From: an uncultured Gammaproteobacteria bacterium | GTDB taxonomy: Bacteria > Patescibacteriota > Patescibacteriia > UBA9934 | Assembly: GCA_964401485.1 (NCBI GenBank) | Contig: CAYNYL010000001.1 | Coordinates: forward strand, 2,103 to 63,017 | DNA: 60,915 nt | Direction of reading: 5' to 3' | In this document: positions 1 through 56,203 of the stretch, piece after piece | How positions within the stretch are numbered: position 1 is the first letter of the stretch | Layout of the letters: every line of letters starts with the position of its first letter | Position numbers and translations under genes: made by a program | The notes under the pieces: generated by a model | What the model was told of the DNA's origin: nothing | The model's input: the letters and a program-made list of their open reading frames with translations, nothing else | Databases searched by the model: none

Positions 1-56
1 TCGGTCGGGGTCGGGGTCGTCTCGGTCGGGGTCGGGGTCGTCTCGGTCGGGGTCGT
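1..56. repeat. 21-bp tandem repeat, about 2.7 copies visible, encoding TTPTPTE
   Basis: tcggtcggggtcggggtcgtc at 1-21 and 22-42, partial copy at 43-56. Confidence 0.9.
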
Positions 57-323
57 CGTGGTCGTCGTCCCGTTCGCCGCCTCGAGGGCGGAGACGCGGT
101 CCGTGAGCTCACGAATCTCCCGCCGACGGCGGTCGAGGCTGGCCGCGATGCGAACCACCTCGAGCCGGGTCTCGTCGGCGCGCTGACGCGCCTCGGCGAG
201 GTCGAGCTCGGCCGTCGGGGTTCCGCTCGGCTGCGCCGGGCGGCCCGCGGGGGCCGCCGGCTGGGACTGCGCGAACGCGGTCCCGCCGACCAAGAAGGAG
301 AGGACACAGAGGAGGTTGCGCAT
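1..323 (-). CDS. Secreted protein, runs off the window edge: signal peptide, coiled coil, Thr/Pro repeat linker (not in ORF track)
   Basis: Manual translation from ATG at 323: MRNLLCVLSFLVGGTAFAQSQPAAP...ELTDRVSALEAANGTTTTTTPTETTPTPTETTPTPT. Open to base 1; GGAGG at 330-334; high GC3. Confidence 0.8.
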   Translation of the reverse strand, partial: MRNLLCVLSFLVGGTAFAQSQPAAPAGRPAQPSGTPTAELDLAEARQRADETRLEVVRIAASLDRRRREIRELTDRVSALEAANGTTTTTTPTETTPTPTETTPTPT

Positions 324-506
324 GATGCGCCTCCAGCCCATCTAAGGGCGTTAGGGTTTACTTTGCACTGACCGCACGATCCCGCTTTCGCGGAAGGATG
401 CCGCCAGCGCGTTGCGACAATCCTTTGACTCGGCATCTAAAAGTCGGAGGGGAGCTTAAAGATACCGGGTCGAAGGATTGCCGCAGGCTTGAAAGAACGA
501 CACACA

Positions 507-535
507 TTTATAGCATTTTTTGAGGATTTTGTCAA
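507..535 (-). promoter_or_regulatory. sigma70 promoter for the gene starting at 323
   Basis: Minus strand TTGACA-17 nt-TATAAA with TG extended -10. Confidence 0.7.
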
Positions 536-590
536 TACTGAACCCTGGCAAAAATGAAAAAACGCCCGAAAATAGGCATAATTTACGATC

Positions 591-620
591 TTGACAAAAA
601 ACCCCCCTTTCGGCTAAAGT
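591..620 (+). promoter_or_regulatory. sigma70 promoter with no downstream plus-strand ORF
   Basis: TTGACA 591-596, 18-nt spacer, TAAAGT 615-620. Confidence 0.5.
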
Positions 621-625
621 TCGGT

Positions 626-717
626 CAACAAGTCCCCTTCTAGGGCTTTTTCCTGAAACTTGTGACACCTCCTCCTTGTCGCAATGGATGGGAAATGCCC
701 CAAAAGGGGATTTTTTT
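626..717 (+). ncRNA. Candidate small RNA with anti-SD (CCUCCUCCU) hairpin loop
   Basis: Upstream promoter; stem 660-667/677-684 with loop CCTCCTCCT; CCCC-AAAA-GGGG hairpin plus T7 at 698-717. Ends are estimated. Confidence 0.4.
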
Positions 718-3090: not shown

Positions 3091-3531
3091 ATGAAAACGC
3101 TTGCGATCAACAAGTACGCAAAATCTGATTACGAGATCCTCTCGCTCCACGAGGGTGGGTTAGCGCTCACTGGCGCCGAAGTTAAATCGGCAAAACTTGG
3201 TCATATCCAGCTTAAAGGAAGCTTTTTGTCGATCGAGGGTGGTCAACTCGTTGTCAAAAACATGTTTATTGCCCGCTACGCGCCGGCTGGCCCCGAAGCT
3301 CCCCACGACGAAACTCGCACCCGAAACGTCCTTGTCCACGCCTCGGAACTTCGCCAATTTATCGGAAAAAAGCAGGCCGAAGGATTGACATTAGTGCCTA
3401 TTCGCGTGTATACTAAACGCAGTTTGGTAAAGCTTGAATTTGCGGTTGCAAAAGGAAAAAAGCAGTACGAAAAGCGCGATACCATCAAAAAACGAGATCT
3501 AGACCGACGACTCCGCCGAGGACTCGATTAG
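3091..3531 (+). CDS. smpB: SsrA-binding protein SmpB
   Basis: INKYAKSDY, GLALTGAEVKSAK, GKKQYEKRDTIKKRD; adjacent to tmRNA. Confidence 0.97.
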   Translation: MKTLAINKYAKSDYEILSLHEGGLALTGAEVKSAKLGHIQLKGSFLSIEGGQLVVKNMFIARYAPAGPEAPHDETRTRNVLVHASELRQFIGKKQAEGLTLVPIRVYTKRSLVKLEFAVAKGKKQYEKRDTIKKRDLDRRLRRGLD

Positions 3532-3567
3532 TCGACGCTCCCCGCTTATCCTTTTAGGAGGCTAGAC

Positions 3568-3948
3568 GGGGCCCGTCGGGATTCGACGGCAAAGGTTCCT
3601 TTCTAAAGATCAGGTCGAAGTCATTCCCTTCGTTAAAAGAATGAACGACATACTTGGAAACGTCAAAACCGCAGGACTTGTTCGAATGAACCTTCCTGCA
3701 TTTGCCCTCGCGTAACTAACGCATCGGCCATCTCCCCACTTCGCTCGTAGGTGGATCAGAGGTGTAATATAACGAGCTTGGGACGATTCGCCGGTTACGA
3801 ATCGTTTAACCTCCATTAACCGAAACGCCTCCGTGCATTTTCGTCATGCATTAAGCCGGAAGCGACCCCCAAAGCATGACTACACCTGTAAACACATCGA
3901 TAGAGAGATATTTGTCACACGGGAGTTCAACTCTCCCCGGGTCCACCA
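3568..3948 (+). ncRNA. ssrA: tmRNA, one-piece; probable tag AGLVRMNLPAFALA* at 3671-3715
   Basis: 5' GGGGCCCGTCGGGATTCGAC; 3' T-arm GGGAGTTCAACTCTCCC and CCACCA; tag frame ending FALA-TAA. The resume codon is inferred. Confidence 0.93.
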
Positions 3949-3968: not shown

Positions 3969-4517
3969 ATGCGCATCCACCGCCACCGTCAACGAAAATC
4001 ACAAATCGTGATTCCGCAGTATAAAGTTAACGATAAAATCCGTTCTGATGAGGTGCGGGTCATTTTTGGGGAAACAAATGACGTAATGACGCGGGAGGCA
4101 GCAATCGCGCTCGCCGAAGAGCATGGACTCGATTTGATCGAGGTTTCGCCAAAGGCAAACCCTCCGGTCTGTAAACTAATGGATTTCGGTTCATTTAAGT
4201 ACCAAAAGGAAAAGGAAGTGAAGAAACAAAAGGCCGCGCAAAAGGAAATTGAAATCAAGGGAATCCGACTTACGGTTCGAATCGGAGAGGGAGACCTCGA
4301 AATCCGACGAAAGCAAGCGCTTAAATTCCTCGAAAAGGGTTCAAAGGTCCGAATTGAGATGATTTTGCGAGGTCGAGAGAAGGCCTACCGAGATCGCGCC
4401 CAAGAAATTATCGATGGATTTATCGCGAGCGTGAAGGAAGTTCGACCTGTAAAAGTTGAATCCCCTCTTAAAAACGTCGGAAATCGTATCCATACGATTA
4501 TTGCAAACGAGGGATAA
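3969..4517 (+). CDS. infC: Translation initiation factor IF-3
   Basis: VNDKIRSDEVRVI, LDLIEVSPKANPPVCKLMDFG, MILRGRE. Confidence 0.97.
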   Translation: MRIHRHRQRKSQIVIPQYKVNDKIRSDEVRVIFGETNDVMTREAAIALAEEHGLDLIEVSPKANPPVCKLMDFGSFKYQKEKEVKKQKAAQKEIEIKGIRLTVRIGEGDLEIRRKQALKFLEKGSKVRIEMILRGREKAYRDRAQEIIDGFIASVKEVRPVKVESPLKNVGNRIHTIIANEG

Positions 4518-4568
4518 ATCCTTGACAGAATCCCCCATTCCGCATAAACTTCCACGGTATTCATTTAT

Positions 4569-4766
4569 ATGAAACAAAAGACCTACAAAGCACTCGCAAA
4601 ACGAGTCAAAATTTCGAAGCGAGGCAAGGTTCTTAAGCGTAAAGCAGGTCAAGACCATTTTAACGCACGTGAAAGCGGAAAAACCCGCCGAAACAAGCGT
4701 CGAGATGTGACCATGCCAGCCGTTGTCCAAAAGACAATTGAATCGCTGCTTCCATACCATAACTAA
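4569..4766 (+). CDS. rpmI: 50S ribosomal protein L35
   Basis: MKQKTYKALAKRVKISKRGKV; infC-rpmI-rplT order. Confidence 0.95.
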   Translation: MKQKTYKALAKRVKISKRGKVLKRKAGQDHFNARESGKTRRNKRRDVTMPAVVQKTIESLLPYHN

Positions 4767-4829
4767 TCGAGGATCGGGATCAGAAGTACCGCAAATGGGC
4801 GGTCCCCAGAACTCATTAATGAAATCACT

Positions 4830-5174
4830 ATGCCACGTGTCAAACGAGGAATGATTCATACCAAGCGACGCTCGTCGCTCATGAAAAAAGTGAAGGGATA
4901 CAAGTGGGGACGAAAGAATAAAATCCGTCTCGCACGCCCAGCGATGTTAAAAGCTGGTTCGTACGCCTTCCGCGACCGTCGCGCAAAAAAGCGCACGTTC
5001 CGCCAACTCTGGAACTTGAAAATTAACGCTGGGGCTCGTATGCACGGCATGACCTATTCGACCTTGATCCACGCGATGAAGGAGAAGGGAATGCTCATTG
5101 ACCGCAAGATTCTTGCGACTCTCGCTGAAAAGCACCCGGAAATGTTCAAAGCCGTAATCGATTCGGTTAAATAA
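4830..5174 (+). CDS. rplT: 50S ribosomal protein L20
   Basis: MPRVKRG, YAFRDRRAKKRTFRQLW, IDRKILA. Confidence 0.98.
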   Translation: MPRVKRGMIHTKRRSSLMKKVKGYKWGRKNKIRLARPAMLKAGSYAFRDRRAKKRTFRQLWNLKINAGARMHGMTYSTLIHAMKEKGMLIDRKILATLAEKHPEMFKAVIDSVK

Positions 5175-5196
5175 TCGATAGGGGTGCAAACCTCGC

Positions 5197-5223
5197 AAAA
5201 CCCCGCCTAACTGGCGGTTTTTT
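5197..5223 (+). terminator. Rho-independent terminator of rplT
   Basis: CCGCC-TAACT-GGCGG followed by a T run. Confidence 0.7.
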
Positions 5224-5248
5224 GTTTTGTCCCTTAAGATTCTCTTAT

Positions 5249-6046
5249 ATGGATTTGTTATTTGATATCGGCGGTACGTTCTCGAGATTCGCCATCGTGG
5301 AGAACGGGACGATCGGCCCCGTACAAAAAGTTCCCACTCCGAAAGATTTCGATACGGCAATGACCACTTTCTCTCAACTAATAAATAATTTACGCGGCAA
5401 TGGTCATTTTACTCAAGCTGCAGGTTGCTCCGTCGGTCCATTGAATTTCGAGAAATCAAGGATGATTCACCCACCGAATCTTCCAAGTTGGCATGATCAG
5501 CCCCTCCGGGACAGTCTTCAAAAGATCTGTGGTTGCCCTGTGAGCATTGAAAATGACGCGGATCTCGCAGGACTCGGAGAAGCAACTTATGGCGCCGGCA
5601 GGGGGAAGTCTATCGTCGTTTACTACACGATTAGCACGGGCGTCGGCGGAGCTCGAATTGTAGACGGTAAAATCGATAAAAGTCGTTTTGGAATGGAACC
5701 TGGGTATCAAATCATTGATCCAAATAATCCAAACGGTCACTTAGAAGGACTTGTTTCGGGCACAGCGCTACTTACTCGTTACAGGAAAGCCGGTGAGGAA
5801 ATACAGGATCCAGCGATTTGGAATAGCGTTGCGGAGTCTCTTGCGATTGGGCTCCATAATTCCATAGTTCATTGGTCGCCAGACATTATCATTCTCGGCG
5901 GATCGGTCATGAAAAGCCTACCACTCAATCTCGTTTCGGATCATCTTAAATCCCGCATGCATATTTTTACCGAGATTCCAGAACTCGTTCTTACGACGCT
6001 CGACGAACCGGGACTTTACGGCGCGCTTTCGCTTCTTAAAAACTAA
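5249..6046 (+). CDS. ROK family sugar kinase (glucokinase-like)
   Basis: FDIGGT, ENDADLAGLGE, ISTGVGG, GHLEGLVSG, ILGGSV; start placed at ATG 5249. Confidence 0.9.
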   Translation: MDLLFDIGGTFSRFAIVENGTIGPVQKVPTPKDFDTAMTTFSQLINNLRGNGHFTQAAGCSVGPLNFEKSRMIHPPNLPSWHDQPLRDSLQKICGCPVSIENDADLAGLGEATYGAGRGKSIVVYYTISTGVGGARIVDGKIDKSRFGMEPGYQIIDPNNPNGHLEGLVSGTALLTRYRKAGEEIQDPAIWNSVAESLAIGLHNSIVHWSPDIIILGGSVMKSLPLNLVSDHLKSRMHIFTEIPELVLTTLDEPGLYGALSLLKN

Positions 6047-6097
6047 ACGGCCGGCAACCCGTAGGATCGCCGACCGCACGCACACATCCTCCGAACT

Positions 6098-6943
6098 TTA
6101 CGCGAGCTCGGGGAACTCGCGACAAATGAGCGAAGCGACGTGGCCCGAGATGTCTCCGAACGCTCCTTGACTCGCGTAGTAACGGAGCCCTTCCGCGAAC
6201 CCCATCCCGTCGGGATGCGTCGCGACGAACCCACCGTTCAACTTGGTTGCCGACTTGATCTCGGGAACCGCGTTTGCGACCGCAATCACGCGCGCTTCGG
6301 GGATCACGAGCTCAAGGTCGTTCACCCCGTCAATCGCCGTGAGGACTTCCTCGGTCGTGATGCCGAAGGCCTTGCAAATCGCCTCGACGCCAAGCCCCTT
6401 GTGCAGGCTCCCGGGTAGCACGTCGACACAGCCGTCGCTGAATCGGTGCACCTTGAGCGGAAACTTTCGATCGTTGATCACGTCTAGAAAGTACTCCGCC
6501 CACGGAACAGTCGCCTCAAGATCCGTTCCCGAGGGAAAGAGCGAGATCACCGCCTCCTTGAGTTCGGGTCGACAGGACTGACGCTGTCCTCGACAGTAGA
6601 AGGTCCGTTCGATCGGGCTGAGTTCGATATGCCGTGCAAAGATCGCGAGGTCCCTCGCACCTCCCTTCACAGCCTCATGCACACGGTAGGCCGGCGGGTT
6701 GCGTTCGACCGTCTCGAGCACAACCGCACCCGTCTCTGCAATGACGAAGTCCCAAACCATCCCGATCCCGCAAGCGAGTCCGCGCGCATAATCGGCATTC
6801 TTCCCCGTAACGGGACCAACCTTGATTCCGAACGTCTGAAGCCCGCGAAGGACTCGACCAACGCGCGGATCAATCGGCCCACCCTGAGGCATCACCGTTC
6901 CATCAACGTCAAAGCCAACCAATCTAATCGTTTTTTTCGACAT
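6098..6943 (-). CDS. HAD-superfamily class IIB (Cof/SPP-like) phosphatase
   Basis: FDVDGT, VTGK, AETGA, DVLPGSLHKG, DGVNDLE, AVANA; SD AGGAGG. Confidence 0.85.
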   Translation of the reverse strand: MSKKTIRLVGFDVDGTVMPQGGPIDPRVGRVLRGLQTFGIKVGPVTGKNADYARGLACGIGMVWDFVIAETGAVVLETVERNPPAYRVHEAVKGGARDLAIFARHIELSPIERTFYCRGQRQSCRPELKEAVISLFPSGTDLEATVPWAEYFLDVINDRKFPLKVHRFSDGCVDVLPGSLHKGLGVEAICKAFGITTEEVLTAIDGVNDLELVIPEARVIAVANAVPEIKSATKLNGGFVATHPDGMGFAEGLRYYASQGAFGDISGHVASLICREFPELA

Positions 6944-7038
6944 CTATCCTCCTTCCCTTTCGGGATACCCAAACTTAGCGTATTCCTTTAAATTTGTACA
7001 TATTTTGGCCATTTCCCTGCTTTCTTAAACCTCTTTCA

Positions 7039-7067
7039 TTGACAAAAAGGCCATTTTCTGCTACTAT
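7039..7067 (+). promoter_or_regulatory. sigma70 promoter for 7151
   Basis: TTGACA-AAAAGGCCATTTTCTGC-TACTAT, 17-nt spacer. Confidence 0.75.
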
Positions 7068-7150
7068 TTCAAGTCATGTTGGCCGGTAATCGGCTAGCAG
7101 ACACAGTTCTATAGACCCCAGAAGCCGCCAAGTGCGGTAAGGAGAAGGCG

Positions 7151-8035
7151 ATGAACCAGATCGAAACCTGCCTCGAGAACCTCGAGAACGCGCGAGATGC
7201 GCTTCTCACGGCGCAGGGAGAGCAGGCCACCGCCGAGCGCGAGCTCGCGACGGCGAAGACCGTCCTCGACACGGCGAAGGCCGCAACGCCCCAGGACGCC
7301 ACGGCGATCGCGACGGCGCAGACCAACTTCGACAAGGCGACCGAGACGGTCACCAAAGCGAAGAAGGCCACGAATCGTGCCAAGGCTGGGGTGATCGCAG
7401 CCGAGGGCTCGCTCAAGCGCGCCCAGGATCTGCTCACCGCCCCGCCCGAAGCGCCCCCGTCGGTCAGCGAGCGTGCGTTCCCCTTGATCGTCGCCTCCCT
7501 GGTCGGCCTCACCGCGGTCGTCGTCGGCCTGCTCTGGGCCTACGGAAGCGCGCCCGAGCTCGCGACTGCCGACGCGCTCGACAGCGTGGCGGTCGACGTC
7601 CGAGCGACGAAGGGCAAGGTCACGGAGCTCAAGACCCGCATGACCGACGTCGAACGTCGGATCACGCTGATGGAGCAGGTCCCGACGACGTCGCGCGCCG
7701 GAGCGGTCGTCACGACCCAGGGCTCGGCCGTCGACCCGACCACCCTCGCGGTGGCGGCGTCGGACGTCAATTGGTATCCGGCGAACGAGGAGGAGCCCAA
7801 CCGCTCCTTCTGGACCCGGCCGGACGGCGTGACGGTCGTGTTCATGGGAGTGCTCCTCGAGGACGCCTGTTGGCTCGCGAACGACACCAACACGATGCTC
7901 GGGTGCAACGTCCGCGAGTCGGACAAGGCCCCGTTCCTCGCCTCCTGCGGGGACGGCCCGCGCGGGATCAAGGCCGCGACGGCGACGTGCCCCGAGGTGG
8001 TCATCACCTCCTCGGCGCCGCTCACCCGCGGCTGA
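7151..8035 (+). CDS. GC-rich hypothetical membrane protein: Ala-rich coiled coil, TM helix, coiled coil, Cys-containing C-terminal domain
   Basis: 294 aa, high GC3, SD AAGGAG, hydrophobic LIVASLVGLTAVVVGLLWA. Confidence 0.8.
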   Translation: MNQIETCLENLENARDALLTAQGEQATAERELATAKTVLDTAKAATPQDATAIATAQTNFDKATETVTKAKKATNRAKAGVIAAEGSLKRAQDLLTAPPEAPPSVSERAFPLIVASLVGLTAVVVGLLWAYGSAPELATADALDSVAVDVRATKGKVTELKTRMTDVERRITLMEQVPTTSRAGAVVTTQGSAVDPTTLAVAASDVNWYPANEEEPNRSFWTRPDGVTVVFMGVLLEDACWLANDTNTMLGCNVRESDKAPFLASCGDGPRGIKAATATCPEVVITSSAPLTRG

Positions 8036-8068
8036 CCAATGGTCCGAGCCACCTGACGGCTCAACTAC

Positions 8069-8118
8069 GACCGGTCCTGCAATGCGCAAGCATCTCGCGG
8101 GACCGGTCTTCTGCTTTA
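8069..8118 (+). terminator. Terminator after 8035
   Basis: GACCGGTCCTGC...GCGGGACCGGTC stem with inner ATGC-GCAA-GCAT, then TTCTGCTTT. Confidence 0.7.
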
Positions 8119-8209
8119 CAAAAATGAAAAAATGCATTAGTATTACCCGTCGTACTCTTTAGATCTTCAAATCGGGGCGACATGCCCTTTCAACAAAACG
8201 AGGCTTCAC

Positions 8210-9724
8210 ATGTTCAGCATTCACTTGCAGGGCGACAAAGGCGCTACCAAGCTCGAGGCGAACGACCACCTCTACATCTTCATCAAAAATGACGAAATCA
8301 ACATCCTCGGAGGTGAACCTATCGCTACCTTTGACTACAAGGAGCCGGGCGTACTCACGTTCACACTCCTTGTGGAACACATTCGAGCAGAGATCCGTAG
8401 GACCGACGATGTTGTTGAATTCGCGGAACGGCTGGTGCCGATCGAATTTCGTTCCGGTGCCGACGTTACGATCAACAGGCAAACGATCGAGGTGCGCGAG
8501 GGCGTCATCCTGAACTTCGACGCCAACTCACTCGACAATTGCACCCTTCCGCCCACGGAACGCTTACGTGCACCGCAACACGGTGGAGCGCTTACCTACA
8601 GCGAACCGGATACGAACGAGCCCGAGCTCCCGGAGGAGCCCACCGTCCAAAAGGCCGTACAGCCCACTCTCGTACCGGCCGAACGGACCGTGGGACCGAT
8701 GGGAAGCGAGGAGGATATGCAACGTGACGCCCTTCCCTACGACGACGAAAAGCAGGCGATCAGAATCGCCGTAGAGTCCTTGCAAACGTCGGAAGGCGTC
8801 ATCGCGTACGAAGGGCTCCTCGAGATCGTGAGACTTCGGTTTCCTAAAATTGCAAATCGCCTTGGAGCCTATTACCTCAAAGCCTTCCGAAAGGAGCTGA
8901 TGCAGGAGAGCGCGAGGGCCTGGGAGATCATGAGTTACTTCTCGGGCGGAATGCGACAAGAGTTCGAAGCGCTACGAGCACAAGTCACAGAGAAGCTCGC
9001 TGAGATCGATGCAGTGCGCACTCTCTTCGACGAAGAGCGCACAACGACCAAAAAAGAGATCGATGAGCAGTGGGTCCTGTGGAAGAAGGCACGAGCACAG
9101 GTCATGCGAGACCACAAGAGAGCCGAGCGAGAGCAGAGGCTCTTGCCGCGCATCAATTTCGCGGTCCTACTCGTAGCGAGCGCCTCGCTCTGCCTCTTCC
9201 CTCGAGCGTGCGTGCAAGAACCCTCGTCGGACATTACGATCGAGGAGCTCGATTTGCGAATCGCACAGGAGATCGAGAAACGACTCGAGGCTCAACCGAA
9301 CGACTCAAGTCCGACGCCGGAGGTCGTGTTGGTCGTTCGGCAACCAGCCAAGAACGCCATCATCAACGGCGCAAATCCAGAAGTCATCGCGGACGATGGA
9401 GCGCTACCCGCTGAGCCAGAAGTCATTGAGGACCCAGAGATCGAACCCGACACAGGTATCGAACTTGCGGACATCGAACCCCTCGAAGAGGCGCACCCGA
9501 TTTCGCCAGCCTACCTGCAGATCAAGTGCGAATCGGACTCCTGCTCCTTCTGGGCCACGCAAAACGGTAGCATCTATGCCTACCGCGCGACCCCGGTACG
9601 AGAAGGCGCCTGCGAGATCGGCCCCTGCATCGTCGATCTCTCGGGCAAACTCGTTCCCGACACGTGTCTCGGACGCTCGACTAACGATTGTCCCGAAATC
9701 GAGATGATCGCGAAGATCCGATGA
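8210..9724 (+). CDS. Hypothetical single-pass membrane protein: cytoplasmic domains, coiled coil, acidic linker, Cys-rich C-terminal domain
   Basis: 504 aa; TM INFAVLLVASASLCLF; five C-terminal Cys; own promoter TTTACA-17-TAGTAT at 8115-8143. Confidence 0.75.
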   Translation: MFSIHLQGDKGATKLEANDHLYIFIKNDEINILGGEPIATFDYKEPGVLTFTLLVEHIRAEIRRTDDVVEFAERLVPIEFRSGADVTINRQTIEVREGVILNFDANSLDNCTLPPTERLRAPQHGGALTYSEPDTNEPELPEEPTVQKAVQPTLVPAERTVGPMGSEEDMQRDALPYDDEKQAIRIAVESLQTSEGVIAYEGLLEIVRLRFPKIANRLGAYYLKAFRKELMQESARAWEIMSYFSGGMRQEFEALRAQVTEKLAEIDAVRTLFDEERTTTKKEIDEQWVLWKKARAQVMRDHKRAEREQRLLPRINFAVLLVASASLCLFPRACVQEPSSDITIEELDLRIAQEIEKRLEAQPNDSSPTPEVVLVVRQPAKNAIINGANPEVIADDGALPAEPEVIEDPEIEPDTGIELADIEPLEEAHPISPAYLQIKCESDSCSFWATQNGSIYAYRATPVREGACEIGPCIVDLSGKLVPDTCLGRSTNDCPEIEMIAKIR

Positions 9725-9832
9725 CCCCCTGCCCCCGGCCAGCAACAGCTGTGTCCGGGGGCTCATTGCATCTAAAGCCCCCTTGCCAATTTTTTGCCCC
9801 CCTGTTAAGATATTCGCACGGAATTACCAATT

Positions 9833-9909
9833 GGGTCGGTAGTTCAACTGGTTAGAGCACCGCCCTGTCACGGCGGAAGTTGCGGGTTCGAGTCCCGTCC
9901 GACCCGCCA
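9833..9909 (+). tRNA. tRNA-Asp(GTC)
   Basis: Cloverleaf, anticodon loop CT-GTC-AC, encoded CCA; promoter TTGCCA-17-TAAGAT at 9783-9811. Confidence 0.97.
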
Positions 9910-9915
9910 CGACCA

Positions 9916-9940
9916 CATCACCCCAAAAGGGTGGTGTTTT
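9916..9940 (+). terminator. Terminator after tRNA-Asp
   Basis: CATCACCC-CAAAA-GGGTGGTG-TTTT. Confidence 0.7.
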
Positions 9941-9982
9941 CGTTTTAAACACTGTTCGTATAGACAAAAGAAAAAACCACGC

Positions 9983-10663
9983 TTATTGCGTGGCTTCTTC
10001 CGCTCCCCCCTCCTCGGCCCGATCGACAACAAGATCTGCTCGGCGCTTAAGTTCCGCGGGAAGCTCGTCGAGCGATCCTTCAAGGAGCTCATCATTAAAG
10101 AAAATCACCGGAATCTGCTCATTTGTCGCTCCAAGAACGTCGCGGAACGTTCGAATAATCGACATATCAAGAAGCGTATCGAAGGCGTAGAGGCGGACCT
10201 CTGGATATTCTTGCTGGAAGCTACTTAGGCGATGCCATGCCCGCAAACAATCCTCACATCCGTCATTTGCAAGAAACGCGACAACCGTTGGGATTTTATC
10301 CTCACACTTTTCATTAAAAGCTTTCGTAAGAAGGTAATCTCGAATTTGGAGGAGAGAGTGCTCCGCCTTAAGTTGCATGACCTCAATATCGTCCGAGCCC
10401 TTTTGCTCTTCGAGATAGGTAATTCGTACGCCAAGGGCGCCGAGCTCTTCCCCGAATGACTGTCGGCGGGAAAGATCACACTCCGCCCCCGCTCGTAGCT
10501 CGTCTTCAAGCTCATCGCTTGCAAGTTGCAGCGAAAGGCCGTTGCGAATCGAACCGATATCAACCGTTCGACGTTGCTCGAGCTCGTCGGAGACAACCAT
10601 CGCGGTGACAAACATCACCGCCGTAATTAAGAACGCTGTAATATATTTCGTTGCATGTTTCAT
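9983..10663 (-). CDS. Membrane-anchored protein with C-terminal thioredoxin-like CxxC domain
   Basis: Start moved to MKHATKY; N-terminal TM; GCEDC motif, then VRLYAFD and IPVIFFN resembling a Trx fold. Confidence 0.65.
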   Translation of the reverse strand: MKHATKYITAFLITAVMFVTAMVVSDELEQRRTVDIGSIRNGLSLQLASDELEDELRAGAECDLSRRQSFGEELGALGVRITYLEEQKGSDDIEVMQLKAEHSLLQIRDYLLTKAFNEKCEDKIPTVVAFLANDGCEDCLRAWHRLSSFQQEYPEVRLYAFDTLLDMSIIRTFRDVLGATNEQIPVIFFNDELLEGSLDELPAELKRRADLVVDRAEEGGAEEATQ

Positions 10664-11905: not shown

Positions 11906-13009
11906 CTAGTTTTCCCTTGCGATATCTTGATAGTCCGTAAGCACCTCTTCGTGCGCACGGATCATTGGTCCAATTCCTCGCGTAAAGTCGGGCGCTAATC
12001 CTTGCACAACGAATCGATCTTGAAATAAGTTAATATGAAACGCTTCATCATCTTCAAATGGACGAAGATCCCCCGTCTCCGATACGTAGTATCGTATACC
12101 CTCCTTTTCTATCACACTTCCGGTCGTATGCATACCACAATTACACACCGGGCTACTCTCAACGAATGAGAAGAAGAGGGTCGGATCAACGTCTATAATG
12201 CGTCGATTCCAGTTTTCGCCATAAAGCAGTTTCGCCGTCGCCTCGCTCGGTACAAAGCGTAAAATTCCCCCCGGTTCGACCGCATAGACGGACGGAGTCG
12301 AGGCGATCTTCACAAGCCAAGTTCCAGGACGCACGCGAACCGATGGACCGAGATCAATTTCTGCAAGCACCGAATCATCCACCGTTTTTACCGATTCAAA
12401 ATCGCTAAACCAGCTGAAATAGATTGTTTCATTTGGAAATGGATGACGCTCCCCCGCTCCCCCGATAAAGTACACGGCAGGAAGCGACTTTGAGCGCACA
12501 AGATCCCCAATCGCGATACCGTTTGGAAGCGATTGATCAATCGTATCACGATCCGGGAAGAACGCAGCGACCGGATCATATTCCTGGATATCTTTTACGA
12601 GGAGTACGCTTGAGGACGGTGACGCACTGACGGAAAACGGTTCGGAAAGGGCTCGACCGCGAACGCGCCCATCCCCATTTCGTGCATCAATTCGAATACG
12701 AAGGCCTTCCGCATCAATATTTGGAACCGTCCATTCATAGGTACCGTTCACAGGGAGCGCCGTCTCGAGCAGGTTAAAACTGAGTCCGTCGTCAAACGAA
12801 ACATAGACATCCACATTCGTTGCAGGACCCTGAACATTCCAACGTACCGTCTCCGTTTCCGTTCCAACAACCGCGACCGGGAACTCGACCGAAACACTCA
12901 AATACCCAAATCGTGCACTCACAAAGTAGGCACAGACGGAAACCGTAAACGCAATAAACAGTGCCGATAACACGACTCGGATTGACGATGGACGGTAAGA
13001 GAACTCCAT
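11906..13009 (-). CDS. CPR-type secreted surface protein (Ig-like domain plus repeated surface module)
   Basis: N-terminal TM or signal; GDLVRSKSLPAVYFI...RHPFPNETIYFSWF and RPGTWLVKI...VYAVEPGG modules. Confidence 0.75.
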   Translation of the reverse strand: MEFSYRPSSIRVVLSALFIAFTVSVCAYFVSARFGYLSVSVEFPVAVVGTETETVRWNVQGPATNVDVYVSFDDGLSFNLLETALPVNGTYEWTVPNIDAEGLRIRIDARNGDGRVRGRALSEPFSVSASPSSSVLLVKDIQEYDPVAAFFPDRDTIDQSLPNGIAIGDLVRSKSLPAVYFIGGAGERHPFPNETIYFSWFSDFESVKTVDDSVLAEIDLGPSVRVRPGTWLVKIASTPSVYAVEPGGILRFVPSEATAKLLYGENWNRRIIDVDPTLFFSFVESSPVCNCGMHTTGSVIEKEGIRYYVSETGDLRPFEDDEAFHINLFQDRFVVQGLAPDFTRGIGPMIRAHEEVLTDYQDIAREN

Positions 13010-13054
13010 GTCACAAAGTATACCTCGAGATCGAGTGTGCTACAATTTATCTGT

Positions 13055-13372
13055 ATGGAAGAAAAACCACGCGGAACAAATTCAAAACTACTTCTTCAAG
13101 AAATTCGCGCGCTTCAAGATTCGATCGACGAACTTACCGATGCGGTTTCTCGAATGAAAACACCTCGACTTGGTCGAGGGATTGTTGGAATGCTCGTTCA
13201 GAGCATGATCCAGGGACTTGGATTTGTCATTGGCACCACCGTTCTCTTTGCCATTATTATTTTCGCGCTTCGACAAGCCGTTACGAGCCCACCATTCCAA
13301 AAATGGCTCAATAGCCAAATCGAGTCCGCCATCGATCGCTCACTCAACTCACTCCTTTCTAACGGACGATAA
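13055..13372 (+). CDS. DUF5665-like small membrane protein
   Basis: GMLVQSMIQGLGFVIGTT; ATG 8 nt after a TGC-TACAAT box. Confidence 0.7.
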   Translation: MEEKPRGTNSKLLLQEIRALQDSIDELTDAVSRMKTPRLGRGIVGMLVQSMIQGLGFVIGTTVLFAIIIFALRQAVTSPPFQKWLNSQIESAIDRSLNSLLSNGR

Positions 13373-21114: not shown

Positions 21115-24100
21115 CTACGGTGTACAAATGTTGAATTTCACGTTCTGGATTCGAACCGTTCCAGGGTCCCCGGTTGCCGTTTCATCGTCAAAGTAGAAGC
21201 GGAACGGAACCGTTTGACTTCGATCTTCGTCACAGGTGAATCCTTCCGGCCATGGAAGCTCGACACTATTTCCTTCTCGAACGATACCATTCGTTTCAAC
21301 ACCATTGACGATGAATAAGAATCGGATCGACGCAAGAAGTCGGGTCACCATATCCTCGATTCCATCGGCGAGCGGAGGCGGGTTCGAGGTGTATTGAACT
21401 GTGTAAGCGTAGTCGATACCCGTATCTGGATCAATTCCCGTTCCTGGATTCATATAGCCACTCGACCAACGAACCATGTTCGCCTGCGGGGATGGTGTGC
21501 TGACAAAGAGATTTGGCTCAACAGACACCGTGAAGACCGACACGCCATCATTTCGGATCGACTCGATCAATGTTCCGTTTTGCGGAAGATTATACGAAGA
21601 CGAGAGCGCATCGTCGGGACCCTGTCCGGAGGCGTGCTGACCATAGCTCAAGAGAATAATCGCACGCTTTTCGCCGTTCCAGTTGGTGTTTAGCCCCCGC
21701 CAGGCACTAGAGAGTGCAGAGTTCATATCTCCCGCTCCGTAGGAGGAGCTAAGCGATGTGTATCCCTGAATCAGGTTAAGAAGCGCCGTTTGGCTCGACT
21801 CGCCACAGAATCCATCAGCAGAACACACCACACTATCCCTTGAAACACGTGCCGCGGGAGCCGTCGTCGGGTAACTGTAGAGCGCAACCTTTGCATCAAG
21901 ATCTTCATCCGCAAAGACCGTATTTACGATTCGTGTCGCAATGTCTTTCTCAACACTAAGCCGACTTGGCTGTCGTCGACCCGACTGGGAGGTGCGATCA
22001 ACAACGATCGCCACCTTAGCGTCTCCACCCTCAAACAAGAAGTCGATATCCGCCACCGGAGTCGTCGCGACGCGACAAGCCGGAACAACGAGTGAACCGA
22101 ATGTCGGAGTGAAGAGCGATGAACGGCCTTCGCTGAGCGTCGTATAACTGTTGAATTCTGCGCTCGTTTCGGTTCTCGATCCCGAAAGATTGGTTGAGAT
22201 TCGAAGAAGACTTGGTGAGGTTGAGGTAGGACACGCGAGCGAACAAGATGCGTCACAAGCGCCAAACTCACAGACTCCCCCACCGATCGCACAATTCGCA
22301 AATGATGTTCCCGATGTCGGCGAGCAGTATGATCCATTATTTGCCCCTCCATTACACATTCCTACACGTGCGCACACGTAATTCGTTCCTTGATCGATGA
22401 ACCCATCCCCAACTTGCGACGGCTCACAGGTCGAGAAAATATCTCCGCCCTCCGAGATGAAGACGTATGGAATATCGCTTTGATCGCAGTATTCGCCACC
22501 ATTTCGAATTCCGTCCCCACAATAGGCCCCACTCGTCGCGACGAACTGACACGAAGTTGAGCAGTAATTGCAGGTTGATCCGTAAGACGATCGGCACATT
22601 TCTCCGTTTTGATCTCCCGCGTCGCAGGCCTCAATTCCAGAGTGCACGTATCCGTCACCACAGACGTTCAATCGACACTCATTTGTACAGGCATCCGTAT
22701 TATTTCCATTTCCGTCATCGCACGCCTCGCCCGCATCGAGCGTTCCATTTCCGCAGGTAATCGGCCCCTTACACTCAATTCCGATATATCCACGATCCGT
22801 CGTCCAAGTACAAAGGTCACCAGCTGATCCATCATCATTACAGATTCGCGTTCGCGTTGTTTGTACTGGGTTTGCGGAACAATCACCGTCTTGTGCCCCA
22901 GCACTCGAGCAGTCCGCATCAACCGAACAAATCGAACCGCGCTTCGCCGGATCGCCCGAAACACAGACGGTCGAGACCGGACATTCATTACGAATCGCCG
23001 GACCTCCGCATGAGTTCCCATTACAATCATCACTCGACTGACATGGCATTCCAGCAAACACTCCCCGCACACAAAGCTTTCCGTCCCATGACTCTGTATT
23101 TCCATCACACTGCTCCCCAGGTTCAATTACCGCATTTCCGCAAAATGGCGCAGGTCCTGAACAATCCCAGGCGCAGGTACCCGCAGGGTTGCTCCCATAC
23201 TCACCATTCGCAACACCTCCGCAAAGTCCCCCACCAAAAGCGCGTCCGTTTGTTCCATCTCCACAATCACAGACTTCTCCAGCACCGACCGTTCCATCTC
23301 CACAATAAAGGGCCGTCGCGTAGGTGCAGCTCGCGCCACAGTATCCATATTCTCCGTTTTGCGCTCCGTCGTCACACTGCTCCCCAACTCCGTCAATAAC
23401 ACCGTTTCCACACGTTGCCGGAACACATGCCGCCGAGGTATTCGCAACGAAGGCCGAGCAGGTAGCGTTACAAATTTGCGCGCGAAGTCCGTCAAGCGTT
23501 CCGTCTCCATTTGTATCACATGGAACCGCGGAACCCTGTTGACCGATTTCGCAGTATTCCGCAGATCCAACAACACCGTCTCCACAAAGACTCGTCTCTC
23601 CGTAGACTGCCCCCTCACACATAACCGAGGTTCCGATAAATCCGTCTCCAATTGAGTTTGATCCCGCAACCGTAAGGCGATTCTTATTCCCTACATCAAT
23701 CGGATAAATCCACGTCGCCTCGTCATACTCAAGCTCCGCCGTCAATTCGTAATCGAACGGTCCTCGAGCTCGGTAGTGGTAGACGTATGAATCGTTTGGA
23801 CAGATGTAGTGTGATGTTCGCTCGTCAAAACAGGTAGAAGGATCTTGATTTGGATAGGCAGAGTTGCCACAGCTCGCATAGCTATTGAGCGGATCGACTG
23901 GAAGTGTTGTTCCAATTTCATTTCCAAGCGGAGTCGACCAAGTAGGCCAAGCGCTCGAGGCAAGTCCGCGAACAAATGATCCTGACGCAACCGTTGGAAC
24001 CGCACTTACGCACTGCTCGCCCTGCGGACATTCAAGAGAAGACGTGCAGGCGCGATCCGTCGTAACCGAGCAACGTCCGTTCTTTGTCGCATATGATTGG

Positions 24101-27100
24101 AGCGCGAGCTCAACCGAGCGCAAATCGGTAAGACGGCGCATATCTCGCGCAAGTCGAGCCTTTTCATCCGCACAGACTTCCCCAGCCGAAACATTACAGT
24201 CACGGTTTGACGAACAGGTCGTCGCTGTATATTCCCCATCATTGAAACAGAGTCCGGTTGATTCAAGATTCGTAACGAAGCGGAAATTTTCAAGGATTTG
24301 CTCGTGAATTGCGCGCGTCGCCTCGCTCGCCCCTTCGTTGTACGAGATAACATACATGTTTGGATAGGTTGCTCGACTCGCCGTGAAGTTTGGAGCGGCA
24401 ACATACACCGTTCGACCATCCTGTACCGCCTCAAATCCATCAAGTACACGCGAGGTTGGAGAGCCTGTAAATCCTTGCGCCTTGTACCACTCCATTGGCG
24501 AAAGATACGTCGGGTTCGCCGAAATACGAATTCCGATCGCATCGTTTGTTGCATCATCGTTTACACGAAGCAAGTACTCCTTAAGAACGGTTGGCGACTC
24601 TGTATCAGTTGGCGCGATAATCGAAAGCGATGGTAGATCATCGGTTATCACCGCTCGATCACCAGCGTCACGACAATAATGCATCGAAAAGTTCATCCAA
24701 CCTGCCCCTTCGTCAATCATTGCATTTTTTGAGGAACCATCGTCAATGAACGGGAACAAATCTCGACTTGGCCAAGGATTTGCACAAACAGAGGTCGTGA
24801 CCGTCCTCGTTCCAGCAACCGTGGTATTTAAATCAGATCCCGGCGAGGTTGTAATTTTTGCTTGCGCCACAACTTTTGCAGAACCGGAGGCATTACCGGC
24901 AACAATCTCCGCGCGCGGACCAGCCTCTTCATCAACAAGCACAATTTCACCACGAGAATCCTCTCGCCATTCTCCCCAAGTCCAATCGTACACATTTTCA
25001 ATCGGCTCGATCGGGATTCGGCGTCCACGTGAATATGAAACCGGGGTCGCTTTAAAGACATGGCGCTCACCCGTCGCCGTAAAGACGCCAGGGTTCGTTC
25101 GGGACGTGTCCGATACTTCAATTTGGTCAAGCGAACACACCTCGCTTCCCGTCTCAAAAATCGTTCCTGCGTCCGAGCGCATCGAAACACCAAGAGCGTT
25201 CTTTACTCCCGGAACAGTCACTTCCTCTCCTCGATCATTTGTCGTCGTTCGATCCGACAACACCTCAAGTCGGTACTGCGCATTCGGTTGCAATAGTGCG
25301 CGATAGTGGAAAGAAACATCCGTTGTCGTATCCTCATTCGCCTCTTGAGAGACCGATGAAATAGGAAGGACACATAGCCCCGCTTCGATTGCGCGGACAT
25401 TTTCTCCGCGAACAAGAAGCTTGAGTCCACGAATCGCACGACCAAAGATCGAACCACCACCTCGCACCAAATCTCCCTCAACGAGAATCGAGTGATCCGC
25501 CGGGCAGGTTTGATTTGTTACCTCATTCAAACTTAGGACAAGGAAAACGTTATTTTCAAATGAAGTCGTGCTCATTTCTTGCGTGAATGTACCGTAAAGC
25601 GACGCGTTGCGACAAACATCCTGACCATTTGGATAGAGTGTTACGGTTGGACGAAGCGAACAGCACGCATTTGCGCCAACCCCATGGGTCTGCGGGTCGG
25701 AGCAATCAAGATCAGACTGCGCCGAACAAGTAAGCGTAAGACTCGCTTCATCGGCAAGATTATACGCGCTCGCCGCAACGCGGACAGTGGCGGAGGCGCG
25801 ATTCGTTTCCTCACTTACACGCGCGGAGGCGCCGTCTGCGATTCGCGCAAGCTGAAGTGGATCTTCTCGTCCGTCACCCGCGAGGCCAACCTCGCATCCC
25901 GGATATTCAAAGACACTTTGCACACCGTCTCCGCAGATCGCTGGAACGGCGTAGCTAAGAGACGATCCTTCAAGGAGACAACTTGAGGAACACCCATCAC
26001 CGTTAATCTTATTTCCATCATCGCAATCCTCTCCCGCGCCGCTCGCCGTTCGATCAAGTTCATTATTTCCACAGAATCCGACAATGTTTCCCCCCTCGCG
26101 GACGCAAGAAGAAGAGCACCCATCTCCCGAAACAGCATTTCCATCGTCACAACTTTCGTATGGTGATTCGATTCGTCCATTCCCGCATACTGCGAACACA
26201 TCGAGCTGACTTGGTGAGCCCTCGTTCAAACAAATGGAGGAGCACCCATCGCCACTTCGTCGATTTCCATCATCGCAATCTTCACCTCCAAGCGTCGCAA
26301 GGTATCCAACGCTTCCGTTTCCACACGCGCTTCCAACCGATGACCTTGAACCCTCATTCAAACAAAGAGAGGAACATCCGTCGCCAGAAACCGTATTTCC
26401 ATCATCACAATCTTCCCCGGAACCATTTGCACCGCGATTAAGCGTTCCATCTCCGCAAATACCAATATGATCCGCTCCCTCCCGCAAACACATCGAGGAA
26501 CATCCGTCTCCACTCACGCCGTTTCCATCTTCGCACTCCTCACCTACCTCAATCGTTCCATTTCCGCAGATGGCCGAAAGCGCCGTACTTCCAAGCGGAA
26601 GACAGGAAGCTGAACATCCTGGGGCGATCGATCCCCGATCAGAATCGATAAGCGACGCCCCGGCTGGGGACACGAACTCCGCAACCCCTTCTTCGTCAAT
26701 AATCGGCTGTTCCCAACTCCATGTAACCGAATCCGCATTCAACCGCTGTCCGGCAACCGAACAACTATCTCCCGAACCGAACGCCTGCACCGCGTACTCT
26801 TGCGTTGCCCCTATCTCGGAAAGAACGCGAAGTTCCGGCTCGAGGCTTATTCGCGAAACGGCACATTCGATATTCGTCGCCTTGGTTTTGAAGACCCATG
26901 AATAATCGGTCGCGTAGTTCAAACGTGTAAGCGATACTCCGCTCTCGCTTTGCGCCTCTCCACTAATCACCGCGCGGTAATACTTATCCGCCGTAAGTGG
27001 GCCATCTAGAACGAATGCTATTTGCTTACATGGCTCCCCGCTCGCAGATGGGATACAACGTGCGCGGTCCGTCACCGTTCGAGTAAAGGAAAGACAGAGC

Positions 27101-52976: not shown

Positions 52977-53033
52977 GTTTGGTTTGCGGTTTTAATATAT
53001 GGCTTGTTTTAGCCATTTTTATAGCATTTTCCA

Positions 53034-53062
53034 TTGACAAAAGCCGTTTTTTATGCTATAGT
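53034..53062 (+). promoter_or_regulatory. sigma70 promoter
   Basis: TTGACA-AAAGCCGTTTTTTATGC-TATAGT. Confidence 0.8.
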
Positions 53063-53109
53063 AATTCTCCGTTCTTTGGGGCTCATCCCAAGACGGACCG
53101 GAGGACATT

Positions 53110-53223
53110 ATGTCCAAGTACGCCCCGACCTCCGCCGGCCTTTCGACCAACACCAACTTCGGGGCGATCCTCGTGATCGCCCTGTACCTCGACGGGTTCC
53201 TGACCGGCACCTTGCCGTTCTGA
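53110..53223 (+). CDS. 37-aa hydrophobic peptide (not in ORF track)
   Basis: MSKYAPTSAGLSTNTNFGAILVIALYLDGFLTGTLPF*; GGAGG SD; nearly all codons end in G/C. Confidence 0.7.
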   Translation: MSKYAPTSAGLSTNTNFGAILVIALYLDGFLTGTLPF

Positions 53224-53267
53224 ACCGTCGCCTCGTCGGCAGTCCCTGAAAAGACATGCCGGCGAGC

Positions 53268-53306
53268 CCCTCAATGCGCATGAACCAAGTTCGTGCTTAT
53301 CGAGGG
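53268..53306. repeat. Structured repeat, copy 1
   Basis: CTCAATGCGCATGA-ACCAAGT-TCGTGCTTATCGAG. Confidence 0.85.
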
Positions 53307-53357
53307 ACCTTTCCCAAATCAACCCCAGCGCCGCTTTGCGCGGCAACGGAGGCCACC

Positions 53358-54245: not shown

Positions 54246-54308
54246 CACTGTCGTAGCGACAGCTTCGCTACACCGACCGCTGGCCATGCAACGTGCATGG
54301 TCGGCGGG

Positions 54309-54348
54309 TCACTCAATGCGCATGACAATGGTCGTGCCTATCGAGTGA
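54309..54348. repeat. Structured repeat, copy 2
   Basis: CTCAATGCGCATGA-CAATGG-TCGTGCCTATCGAG, followed by a long T run. Confidence 0.85.
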
Positions 54349-54375
54349 TTTTTTATTTTTCATGGCATTTTTGGC

Positions 54376-54404
54376 TTGACAAAAGCCCATTTTTCCAGTA
54401 ATAT
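54376..54404 (+). promoter_or_regulatory. sigma70 promoter for 54454
   Basis: TTGACA-AAAGCCCATTTTTCCAG-TAATAT. Confidence 0.7.
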
Positions 54405-54453
54405 GCTCGGTTGCGTTTTTGCAACCCCAGCCTTAAATGGCTATGGAGTTCCT

Positions 54454-55170: not shown

Positions 55171-55300
55171 TCGCCCGAGCGCGCTGCCCCGGCATCCCCT
55201 GAAAAGGATGACCGGGGCATTTGAATTTCGAGCTGGTACTTGCAAAAAGTGCTATAATAGCGTAAGATACGGTACTGTTCCTTCAACCTTGGAGACCCGA

Positions 55301-56104: not shown

Positions 56105-56203
56105 CCAACTGCCCCACCCCTCAAAAGGTGGGGCGCTTTGTTTACAAAAAATCGCTATTGGTGTATCATGGTCCATCGCTCCTTCCCCAACCCCGAGGTT
56201 CTA

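Follow-up and report, generated by a model that had tools for sequence, protein, structure and literature searches.

A previously undescribed small RNA family with an anti-Shine-Dalgarno-like apical loop, conserved in a clade of Patescibacteria

According to our analysis, the first part of the window (by which we mean the whole stretch of 60,915 nucleotides that was analyzed) contains two minus-strand genes, here called A and B, separated by a gap of 390 nt. Gene A (716-1633, minus) encodes a 305-aa membrane protein, and gene B, which is GC-rich, begins at the ATG at 323-321 (minus) and extends past the window start. The homologues of gene A are named Patescibacteria or Uhrbacteria, and the host is a Patescibacterium; the source of the sequence is a wastewater metagenome. 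Inside the gap lies an element which had been predicted, from the sequence alone, to be a small RNA (sRNA) gene with a plus-strand TTGACA/TAAAGT promoter that has no open reading frame (ORF) behind it. The promoter scan agrees with this description, since the −35 box TTGACA (591-596, plus) and the −10 box TAAAGT (615-620, plus), separated by an 18-nt spacer, make up the best sigma-70-like match in positions 1-2500 (10/12), and no conserved ORF follows. The −35 box is invariant in four spacer variants of the window lineage and the −10 hexamer is invariant within that lineage, where the spacer differs at 6 to 7 of its 18 positions but never in its length; the conserved block opens exactly at the −35 box, following a 42-nt indel.

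The predicted transcript (627-717, plus) is approximately 89 nt long. We place its start at the purine at position 627 (A in the window, G in the variant from run X39), 7 nt past the −10 box, and its 3′ end in the U-run. This terminator U-tract (711-717, plus) consists of U7 in the window and of U5 to U6 in relatives, and it overlaps the stop codon of gene A, which is convergent with the sRNA. A stem closing at U633-A710 and followed by U5 to U7 has the form of an intrinsic terminator, and U-runs are present in all homologues; a simple terminator scan had missed the hairpin, whose long composite form falls outside the loop and stem limits of that scan. With its own promoter, a Rho-independent terminator, an intergenic position, and no conserved ORF across 10 lineages, the element has the makeup of a generic trans-encoded sRNA.

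No conserved ORF was found in the element when the plus-strand ORFs, the minus-strand ORF, and a 21-aa ORF were checked across strains. The plus-strand ORFs 676-783 and 684-815 span a T-run of 5, 6, or 7 nt depending on the strain and are broken because the length of the U-run varies, while the substitutions in the 21-aa ORF at position 718 are non-synonymous for that ORF but synonymous for the gene on the opposite strand. A type I toxin or another small protein was considered and rejected, as the minus-strand ORF 614-703 and the plus-strand ORFs are neither hydrophobic nor conserved and are disrupted by the U-run indels. We likewise rejected an invertible promoter and an integron attC site, since, apart from the two −35 boxes, inverted repeats are missing on the flanks, and R′/R″ cores are absent.

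The RNA folds as one composite hairpin (630-713; −36.8 kcal/mol, z = −4.76 versus shuffles). In its long basal and middle helix, the 5′ arm (630-653, plus) pairs with the 3′ arm (690-713, plus) through the segments 630-639/704-713, 643-646/697-700, and 648-653/690-695. Above it, the 5′ arm of the apical stem (660-667, plus) forms 8 bp with the 3′ arm (677-684, plus), including a U663·G681 wobble; both 3′ arms emerge from the fold as well as from the family alignment. The apical stem closes the 9-nt loop CCUCCUCCU (668-676, plus), an anti-Shine-Dalgarno (anti-SD)-like seed which is predicted to be unpaired (p~1.0). The original prediction had envisaged three hairpins ending in U7, with a central 8-bp stem exposing an anti-SD loop. 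Its U7 run (711-717) and its exposed loop on the stem 660-667/677-684 are both found, whereas the three-hairpin fold is much weaker (−17.4 versus −36.8 kcal/mol) and the single hairpin is favored by energy and by covariation.

The loop copies the canonical 16S anti-SD core in two registers; the host's own 16S 3′ end may differ from this canonical sequence. The window contains the 8-mer CCTCCTCC twice, against 1.55 expected, which is no enrichment; what departs from chance is where it sits, in the apical loop, and that it is conserved. A 9-nt identity between 412-420 and 676-684 was discarded as being at chance level (approximately 0.4 expected). In the window itself, the two strands fold about equally (−36.8 kcal/mol on the plus strand versus −36.5 kcal/mol on the minus strand).

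Conservation within the window lineage was studied in the NCBI MAG contigs L001 and L002, in one Logan and one JGI contig (L013 and L014), in a variant reconstructed from run X39, and in six Logan DNA runs. Positions 590-730 show zero substitutions in the six Logan DNA runs, L002, and L014, while gene A diverges at 22 to 27% of its bases and at 47 to 53% of its third positions. Across all variants, the only variable sites are 627-629 in the 5′ tail, 640, 642, and 685 in the internal loops, and the length of the U-run, and every one of them is unpaired in the plus-strand fold. The plus-strand folds of the variants are kept or better (−36.8, −40.1, and −36.7 kcal/mol), and the minus-strand folds are weakened by approximately 4 kcal/mol (−36.5, −32.1, and −32.2 kcal/mol). 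The loop shows zero substitutions in approximately 10 strain variants. Such invariance of 84 nt within the window lineage exceeds what a seed plus a structure would need, and it hints at a further constraint, for instance, a protein partner or the overlap with the 3′ untranslated region (3′UTR) of gene A. Since the RNA is invariant there, covariation is unobtainable inside the window lineage and distant homologues were needed.

The covariance model R1, built from three variants of the window lineage, gave a match of 52.6 bits in L003 and L004, the contigs of a gene A homologue with 64% identity. This copy follows a PDZ-protein gene encoded on the same strand, and it comes with a TTGACA-17-TAAATT promoter of its own and with a U7 run. 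One copy each was further identified in L015, L016, L017, L018/L019, L020, L021, and L022, which are loci of gene A homologues with long flanks, so that homologues were found beside every related gene cluster with enough flank, i.e., in eight further lineages. The copies occupy different intergenic positions (after PDZ, GATase, and other genes) and both orientations relative to the conserved cluster. All eight distant homologues have a TTGAC(A/G) box, a spacer of 16 to 18 nt, a −10 box of the TAnnnT type (TAAAGT, TAAATT, TAAGGT, TAACCT, TAGGTT, or TAATTT), and a U-run behind the hairpin. They score 29 to 53 bits with R1 and 70 to 86 bits with R2, a second model built solely from the eight distant sequences with the window lineage left out. 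Applied to the window, R2 recognizes 627-715 with 70.6 bits (E of 2e-18) on the plus strand versus 29.5 bits on the minus strand, and overall the covariance-model scores favor the strand carrying CCUCCUCCU over the opposite one by 40 to 55 bits.

In the covariation alignment of 10 distinct sequences, standard pairs occupy 93.1% of the cells, and 30 of the 34 pairs show compensatory double changes. The covariation score is 0.737 versus 0.279 for shuffled alignments, with none of 500 shuffles as high, and it falls to 0.13 to 0.23 when the partner is slid by 1 to 3 columns. Compensatory changes concern 23 of the 24 pairs of the long 5′/3′ helix and 0/3 and 2/4 pairs of the two small local hairpins. 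The U663·G681 wobble is retained in eight of the 10 distinct sequences and would read as a C·A mismatch on the other strand, which fixes the strand as plus. The loop CCUCCUCCU is identical in nine of the 10 lineages and is replaced by UCUCCUCCU in L018. A comparison of related genomes had been suggested as a check on the promoter, the loop, and the terminator; all three are conserved, with covarying stems and in differing gene contexts, and the pattern named beforehand as speaking against an sRNA, a kept stem with a free loop, is reversed, since here the loop is invariant and the stems vary. We therefore regard 627-715 (plus) as very probably a real, conserved, independently transcribed structured sRNA gene, and its relatives as a previously undescribed sRNA family conserved in a Patescibacteria clade.

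The distribution of the family was surveyed around one syntenic gene cluster. A search for further copies in JGI metagenome contigs by two exact-pattern scans, with the stems free and the loop fixed, returned 0 matches and then 6 chance matches without stems, and a scan of genome contigs with gene A returned one locus. Neither a second copy nor a MITE or REP element was detected in the window or in the loci, and blastn against phages and plasmids gave no match. As for RNA data, two runs labeled as RNA-seq (X38 and X39) cover the region as unstranded contigs, of which one stops at 716 and another continues to 862, with a depth close to that of tmRNA and of neighboring coding patches. Being unstranded and of such a depth, these contigs are compatible with a transcript from either strand and may also stem from DNA carry-over or read-through. 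The k-mers of the element were absent from other RNA runs, and three further runs of the same study are listed at a 0.00 share.

The constant neighbor of the RNA is gene B. A gene of this type adjoins the RNA in the window (together with L001 and L002) and in L015, L016, L017, L018, L020, and L022, the arrangement being tandem in L015, L016, L018, L020, and L022 and divergent in the window lineage and in L017. In all cases, the gene-B-type gene has its own promoter, a leader of 130 to 240 nt, and an SD GGAG(G). The promoter of gene B in the window (507-535, minus), divergent from the sRNA, consists of TTGACA (535-530), a 17-nt spacer, and TATAAA (512-507); within the window lineage its hexamers are conserved and its spacer and flanks vary, and TTGAC(A/T)-N16-18-TAnnnT (TTAAGT in L016) stands ahead of the gene B leader in L015 to L018, L020, and L022. 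The translation start of gene B, a candidate target (321-334, minus), comprises the SD GGAGG (334-330), a 6-nt spacer, and the ATG (323-321). The gene-B-type products share a signal peptide, a coiled coil, and a Gly-rich C-terminal domain; they evolve fast, are weakly alike (e.g., 27% identity, E of 1e-7), and have no match in Pfam.

The leader of gene B contains a long hairpin (414-484, minus) with the apical region CUCCCCUCC (the complement of 446-454), in which a compensatory A-T to T-A change at 420/478 occurs in L002 and X39. A long leader hairpin with a C-rich, CCUCC-like apical loop is found in six of the seven lineages, i.e., in the window, L015, L016, L017, L018, and L020, the loop being CUCCCCUCC in the window, ACUCCUCCA in L018, and CCUCCUCC in L017; L022 has the SD-led gene without the long leader hairpin. 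Predicted duplexes between the sRNA loop and the gene B start amount to −7 to −15 kcal/mol and rank 1 to 6 among the 12 to 52 genes per locus, which places the gene B start region among the best predicted loop partners in each locus, yet not first everywhere. In full-length duplex predictions, no conserved complementarity between the sRNA and the gene B leader extends beyond the generic SD core of 4 to 6 nt.

Start signals were counted at the 49 gene starts of the window and compared with random positions. A 4-mer SD precedes six of the 49 starts (random, 8.4%) and a 5-mer SD precedes four (random, 2.2%), whereas 15 of the 49 have a TAnnnT box 5 to 12 nt upstream of the start codon (random, 6.7%). 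A TAnnnT box abutting the start codon is a signature of leaderless mRNAs. SD use at the starts of the window is thus near the random-position rate, and most genes are SD-less or leaderless. The counts of SDs and of −10 boxes fit the earlier description of core genes as leaderless in appearance and of GGAGG as rare and located in high-GC accessory genes. Strong SDs belong to four genes, namely, gene B, a HAD hydrolase in a high-GC island, the ORF 56940-57392, and the gene 29837-31552; the SD region of the HAD hydrolase, AAGGAGGA, is complementary to the loop over 8 bp. A duplex check against ribosome-binding site (RBS) regions, also suggested beforehand and carried out within the window, did return SD matches of 5 to 8 bp, but these are generic only.

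In the mechanism that we propose, a sigma-70-type promoter belonging to the RNA (591-620) would transcribe a molecule of approximately 89 nt, whose single irregular hairpin of approximately 84 nt would, together with the U-tract, double as an intrinsic terminator. The functional determinant would be the invariant apical loop CCUCCUCCU, predicted to pair with GGAGG-type SDs and thereby to block 30S binding or initiation. The adjoining gene B, with its strong SD and a structured leader that has a C-rich anti-SD-like loop of its own, would be the prime candidate target. On balance, we lean, if only slightly, toward a trans-acting sRNA which would silence SD-dependent mRNAs by SD occlusion, gene B being the first candidate. 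The anti-SD reading comes from the sequence of the loop, from its accessibility, and from the precedent of the cuckoo, CcsR, and NfeR1 RNAs; since most genes are SD-less or leaderless, the RNA would reach only a small class of mRNAs, those that depend on an SD. We infer that the RNA is transcribed in vivo, that it pairs with SDs and represses its targets, and which mRNAs these are, while the repression of the accessory surface-gene set as a class, proposed in the original prediction, is speculation.

When the window and seven loci were compared with Rfam 15 at gathering scores, only tmRNA and tRNAs were detected, and the E-value mode added nothing beyond sub-threshold matches, matches driven by the motif, and matches to miRNA hairpins. 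The closest analogues are the cuckoo RNAs, which comprise CcsR1 to CcsR4 of Rhodobacter and the alpha-r14 family of Sinorhizobium, including NfeR1, and which have CCUCCUCCC loops on variable stems (PMC4615179, PMC10746234, PMC8034643). The cuckoo motif is defined as an anti-SD-like CCUCCUCC(C) that is unpaired in a hairpin loop (PMC4615179), and the anti-SD seeds of NfeR1 silence ntrB and ABC-transporter mRNAs at the RBS according to reporter assays (PMC4615179, PMC10746234). The loop CCUCCUCCU shares 8 of 9 nt with CCUCCUCCC, and the stems differ freely in both groups; like the present RNA, the cuckoo RNAs are short, trans-encoded, and provided with a Rho-independent terminator. The motif as so defined is recognizable here, in a loop that is unpaired (p~1.0) and invariant in nine of 10 lineages on a stem where 30 of 34 pairs covary.

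The architecture is another matter. A cuckoo RNA consists of two to four adjacent modules of 24 to 50 nt, each with the motif, whereas the present RNA is a single hairpin of approximately 84 nt with one motif in 10 lineages. The Rfam ar14 model (RF02344) reaches 12.6 bits on L020 against a gathering score of 58.8 and has no match in the window at an E of ≤10. Moreover, the cuckoo RNAs belong to Alphaproteobacteria and to the CIN1 locus with its DUF1127 gene, whereas here the host belongs to the Candidate Phyla Radiation (CPR) and the neighbors are PDZ, GATase, and gene-B-type genes, with no DUF1127. Since the cuckoo architecture is absent and the phylum is different, we deem these RNAs a new family of a known kind of sRNA, and their resemblance to the cuckoo RNAs is most likely a convergence on the anti-SD sequence. 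That an 8-nt anti-SD motif has been fixed independently in Alphaproteobacteria and in the CPR argues that copying the anti-SD is a recurrent solution for repression by RNA.

Other known families are more distant. The only named bacterial sRNA family that surfaces for the window itself is MmgR/alpha-r8 (Rfam suhB, RF00519), which, like ar14, is a C-rich anti-SD-motif sRNA and which shares a small hairpin at the 5′ end, a CUCC element rich in C and U, and a terminator rich in U; with 16.9 bits (E of 0.57) against a gathering score of 41, and with an aligned C-rich element which is not the apical loop, the present RNA is not a member. C-rich anti-SD-like loops are also carried by the RF02278 and RF02837 RNAs. 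These families, i.e., the Betaproteobacteria toxic small RNA (RF02278) and anti-hemB (RF02837), are 57 to 92 nt long and end in a terminator, and the Betaproteobacteria toxic small RNAs are toxic when cloned in Escherichia coli (PMC4603805). On L020, RF02278 reaches 16.3 bits (gathering score, 50) and RF02837 reaches 14.3 bits (gathering score, 49.5), so both stay below threshold; the taxon and the architecture are different, and RF02278 has no match on the window. In Firmicutes, RsaE/RoxS, RNAIII, LhrC, and other sRNAs with UCCC loops have C-rich unpaired motifs that pair with SD regions. The UCCC-loop sRNAs of Firmicutes are discussed in PMC4615179. The RsaE group has the UCCC motif in several copies versus the single CCUCCUCCU here and shows no Rfam match at an E of ≤10. 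RsaE, which had been offered as the analogue, gives way to the CCUCCUCCC group of cuckoo, NfeR1, and CcsR RNAs as the nearest one. The earlier remark that no such sRNA was known from the CPR agrees with the literature searched, where no regulatory small RNA for this radiation was found.

Since the family combines promoter and terminator with strong covariation and with a loop that does not vary, it is ready for a covariance-model census of the CPR and for reporter tests. The rarity of SDs would make such an RNA unusually selective, and its constant pairing with the gene of a fast-evolving secreted protein offers a handle on surface regulation in uncultivated episymbionts. A wider reading, doubtful in our estimation, holds that the invariant sRNA mimicking the 16S tail and the related cis anti-SD leader hairpin could together act as a switch devoted to the small set of proteins whose synthesis depends on an SD; the main gene under its control would be GC-rich and fast-evolving and would encode a secreted coiled-coil surface protein with a possible part in host contact. 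If true, it would amount to class-specific translational control by initiation mode and to the first described regulatory sRNA circuit of the CPR.

The main rival to SD occlusion is a role as a protein-titrating decoy, in which a protein binding C-rich CCUCC-type loops would control the gene B leader and the sRNA would sequester this protein, following the logic of CsrB/RsmY with another motif. In six lineages, the sRNA and the gene B leader each present an apical loop rich in C at the tip of a long hairpin, which would suit such a decoy, as would the detection of the L015 leader hairpin by the sRNA model R2 (26.9 bits) and the invariance of the whole molecule in the window lineage, which befits a protein-bound RNA. 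There is also a precedent, since CcaF1, a DUF1127 protein, binds the cuckoo/CcsR RNAs and no longer does so when the loop is mutated (PMC8034643). However, each RNA has one motif, compared with many in known sponges, and the leader loops vary (CCCCUC, CCCUCC, and ACUCCUCCA) whereas the sRNA loop is fixed. Furthermore, no conserved candidate RNA-binding gene adjoins the RNA, because its other neighbors differ between loci. We consider the decoy unlikely.

A cis-acting attenuator is very unlikely. Here the hairpin and the U-run would be a regulated terminator, and read-through from the sRNA promoter would feed the gene B leader, as the position of the RNA upstream of gene B and on the same strand in L015, L016, L018, L020, and L022 would allow. 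In the window lineage and in L017, however, the RNA and gene B are divergent, so that read-through is unable to reach gene B; besides, gene B has its own conserved promoter in every locus, and no conserved alternative antiterminator pairing was found.

Very unlikely indeed is a mimic of the 16S 3′ tail, whose loop (CACCUCCU/CCUCCUU) would act not on mRNAs but on a factor that recognizes the tail, such as a maturation nuclease, a methylase, a hibernation factor, or a ribosomal protein that sequesters the anti-SD. The loop with its closing bases does match the canonical tail in two overlapping registers, and its invariance over deep divergence fits a partner as conserved as the ribosome, but the loci show no link to ribosome-biogenesis genes and the conserved adjacency of gene B would be left without an explanation. 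We know of no precedent for an RNA of this kind.

The last alternative, which the original prediction had itself raised, that the element is a mere terminator or 3′UTR of the gene 716-1633, including a minus-strand reading with a AGGAGGAGG loop, is hardly credible: the hairpin begins 3 nt past the stop codon of that gene, the strands fold equally (−36.8 versus −36.5 kcal/mol), and terminator-like hairpins of the minus strand lie beyond the element, with a gene A transcript probably running through, yet the reading fails because the RNA does not adjoin gene A in seven of the eight distant lineages (in L003, L015, L016, L018, L020, L021, and L022 the homologue lies away from that gene and on the same strand as it), while the covariance-model scores favor the CCUCCUCCU strand by 40 to 55 bits, the U·G wobble and the U-run are strand specific, and the loop is invariant while the stems change. 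The minus-strand terminator-like hairpins, with a U6 run, are located at 579-562 and, in strains of the L001 type, inside the promoter spacer. As these weak terminators lie only beyond the element, the gene A transcript probably traverses it; in the window lineage, the sRNA would therefore also be antisense to the 3′UTR of gene A, which may add to its complete invariance there.

The leader of gene B, the SD-led secreted-protein gene that adjoins the predicted sRNA, is itself a conserved structured RNA (395 to 545, minus strand). Its promoter, TTGACA-17-TATAAA, lies at 535 to 507 on the minus strand, and a 71-nt hairpin at 414 to 484 on the same strand has a C-rich apical region, CUCCCCUCC, while a second hairpin shows covariation between strains (CCGC-GAAA-GCGG versus UCGC-UUCG-GCGA). 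Equivalent leaders with CCUCC-type loops adjoin the sRNA in five other lineages, at the loci L015 (12077 to 12280), L016 (~8640 to 8885), L017 (~8875 to 9107), L018 (~12060 to 12277), and L020 (~13035 to 13292). Direct pairing of a CCUCC stretch with a GGAGG is seen in L022 and, 5' of the SD, in L020. The leader may be a cis-acting anti-SD element, or else a paralogue of the sRNA.

The divergent promoters of the sRNA and gene B are separated by a 42-nt indel (547 to 588), which contains a terminator-like minus-strand hairpin followed by U6 (579 to 562). Strains lacking the indel instead carry a hairpin, AGCCC-NNN-GGGCT, within the sRNA promoter spacer, which corresponds to 597 to 614 in the window and 4021 to 4038 in L001, a contig of the window lineage. 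Since AUUUUUU follows this hairpin when the minus strand is read, the spacer of one promoter appears to enclose a terminator that serves the convergent gene.

Gene-B-type genes occur at window 1 to 323 (minus strand), L002 1774 to 2847, L001 ~4262 to 5360, L016 8855 to 9886, L017 9107 to 9901, L018 12277 to 13209, L020 13292 to 14272, and L022 10312 to 11109, with a GC content of about 60 to 70% against ~50% for the genome. The encoded proteins evolve rapidly and gave no match to Pfam, and they have in common a signal peptide and a coiled coil, along with a Thr/Pro-rich linker and a C-terminal domain rich in Gly. Two of them end in Phe (L018 and L020) and that of L022 in FWD, termini reminiscent of those of beta-barrel outer-membrane proteins, which would be odd in CPR bacteria. 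At window 1 to 60, where the contig also ends, a short GC-rich repeat (TCGGGGTCGGGGTCGTC...) codes for a Thr/Pro/Glu-rich linker; it is shared low-complexity sequence, with k-mer depths from several hundred to >2,800 in the metagenomes examined.

A conserved cluster (window, 3091 to 3948; L015 to L022) comprises infC-rpmI-rplT, tmRNA, and smpB and, divergently, an AI-2E transporter, a ~120-aa protein, gene A (DUF5656), and a PDZ protein. The PDZ gene has been lost or moved in the window lineage, where gene A encodes 305 aa versus ~254 aa elsewhere. L001 (CAZBFR010000043.1) holds the Patescibacteria-type cluster and the sRNA; its title, "uncultured Gammaproteobacteria bacterium," probably reflects misbinning or mislabelling.

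The genome looks mostly leaderless. Of 49 start codons in the window, 15 have a -10 box (TATACT/TATAAT/TACACT type) 5 to 12 nt on their 5' side (e.g., those at 3058, 13009, 14768, 34234, 39673, 39727, 51943, and 58072), compared with 6.7% of random positions, and SD motifs are near their random rates (4-mer, 12% versus 8.4%; 5-mer, 8% versus 2.2%). A perfect TTGACA marks the promoters of the sRNA and gene B, whereas in most ordinary promoters no clear -35 box is present.

High-GC islands (6000 to 10000 and 53000 to 58000) have 58 to 66% GC versus ~50%. They are accessory, since a related strain in the RNA-seq-labelled run X39 lacks 5228 to 7026 (joint 5227 to 7027), a segment containing an SD-led HAD-hydrolase gene (6098 to 6943). 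Elsewhere, a single minus-strand ORF of 2906 aa spans 21115 to 29835; several other large ORFs, among them ones of 571, 874, and 872 aa, come after it on that strand.
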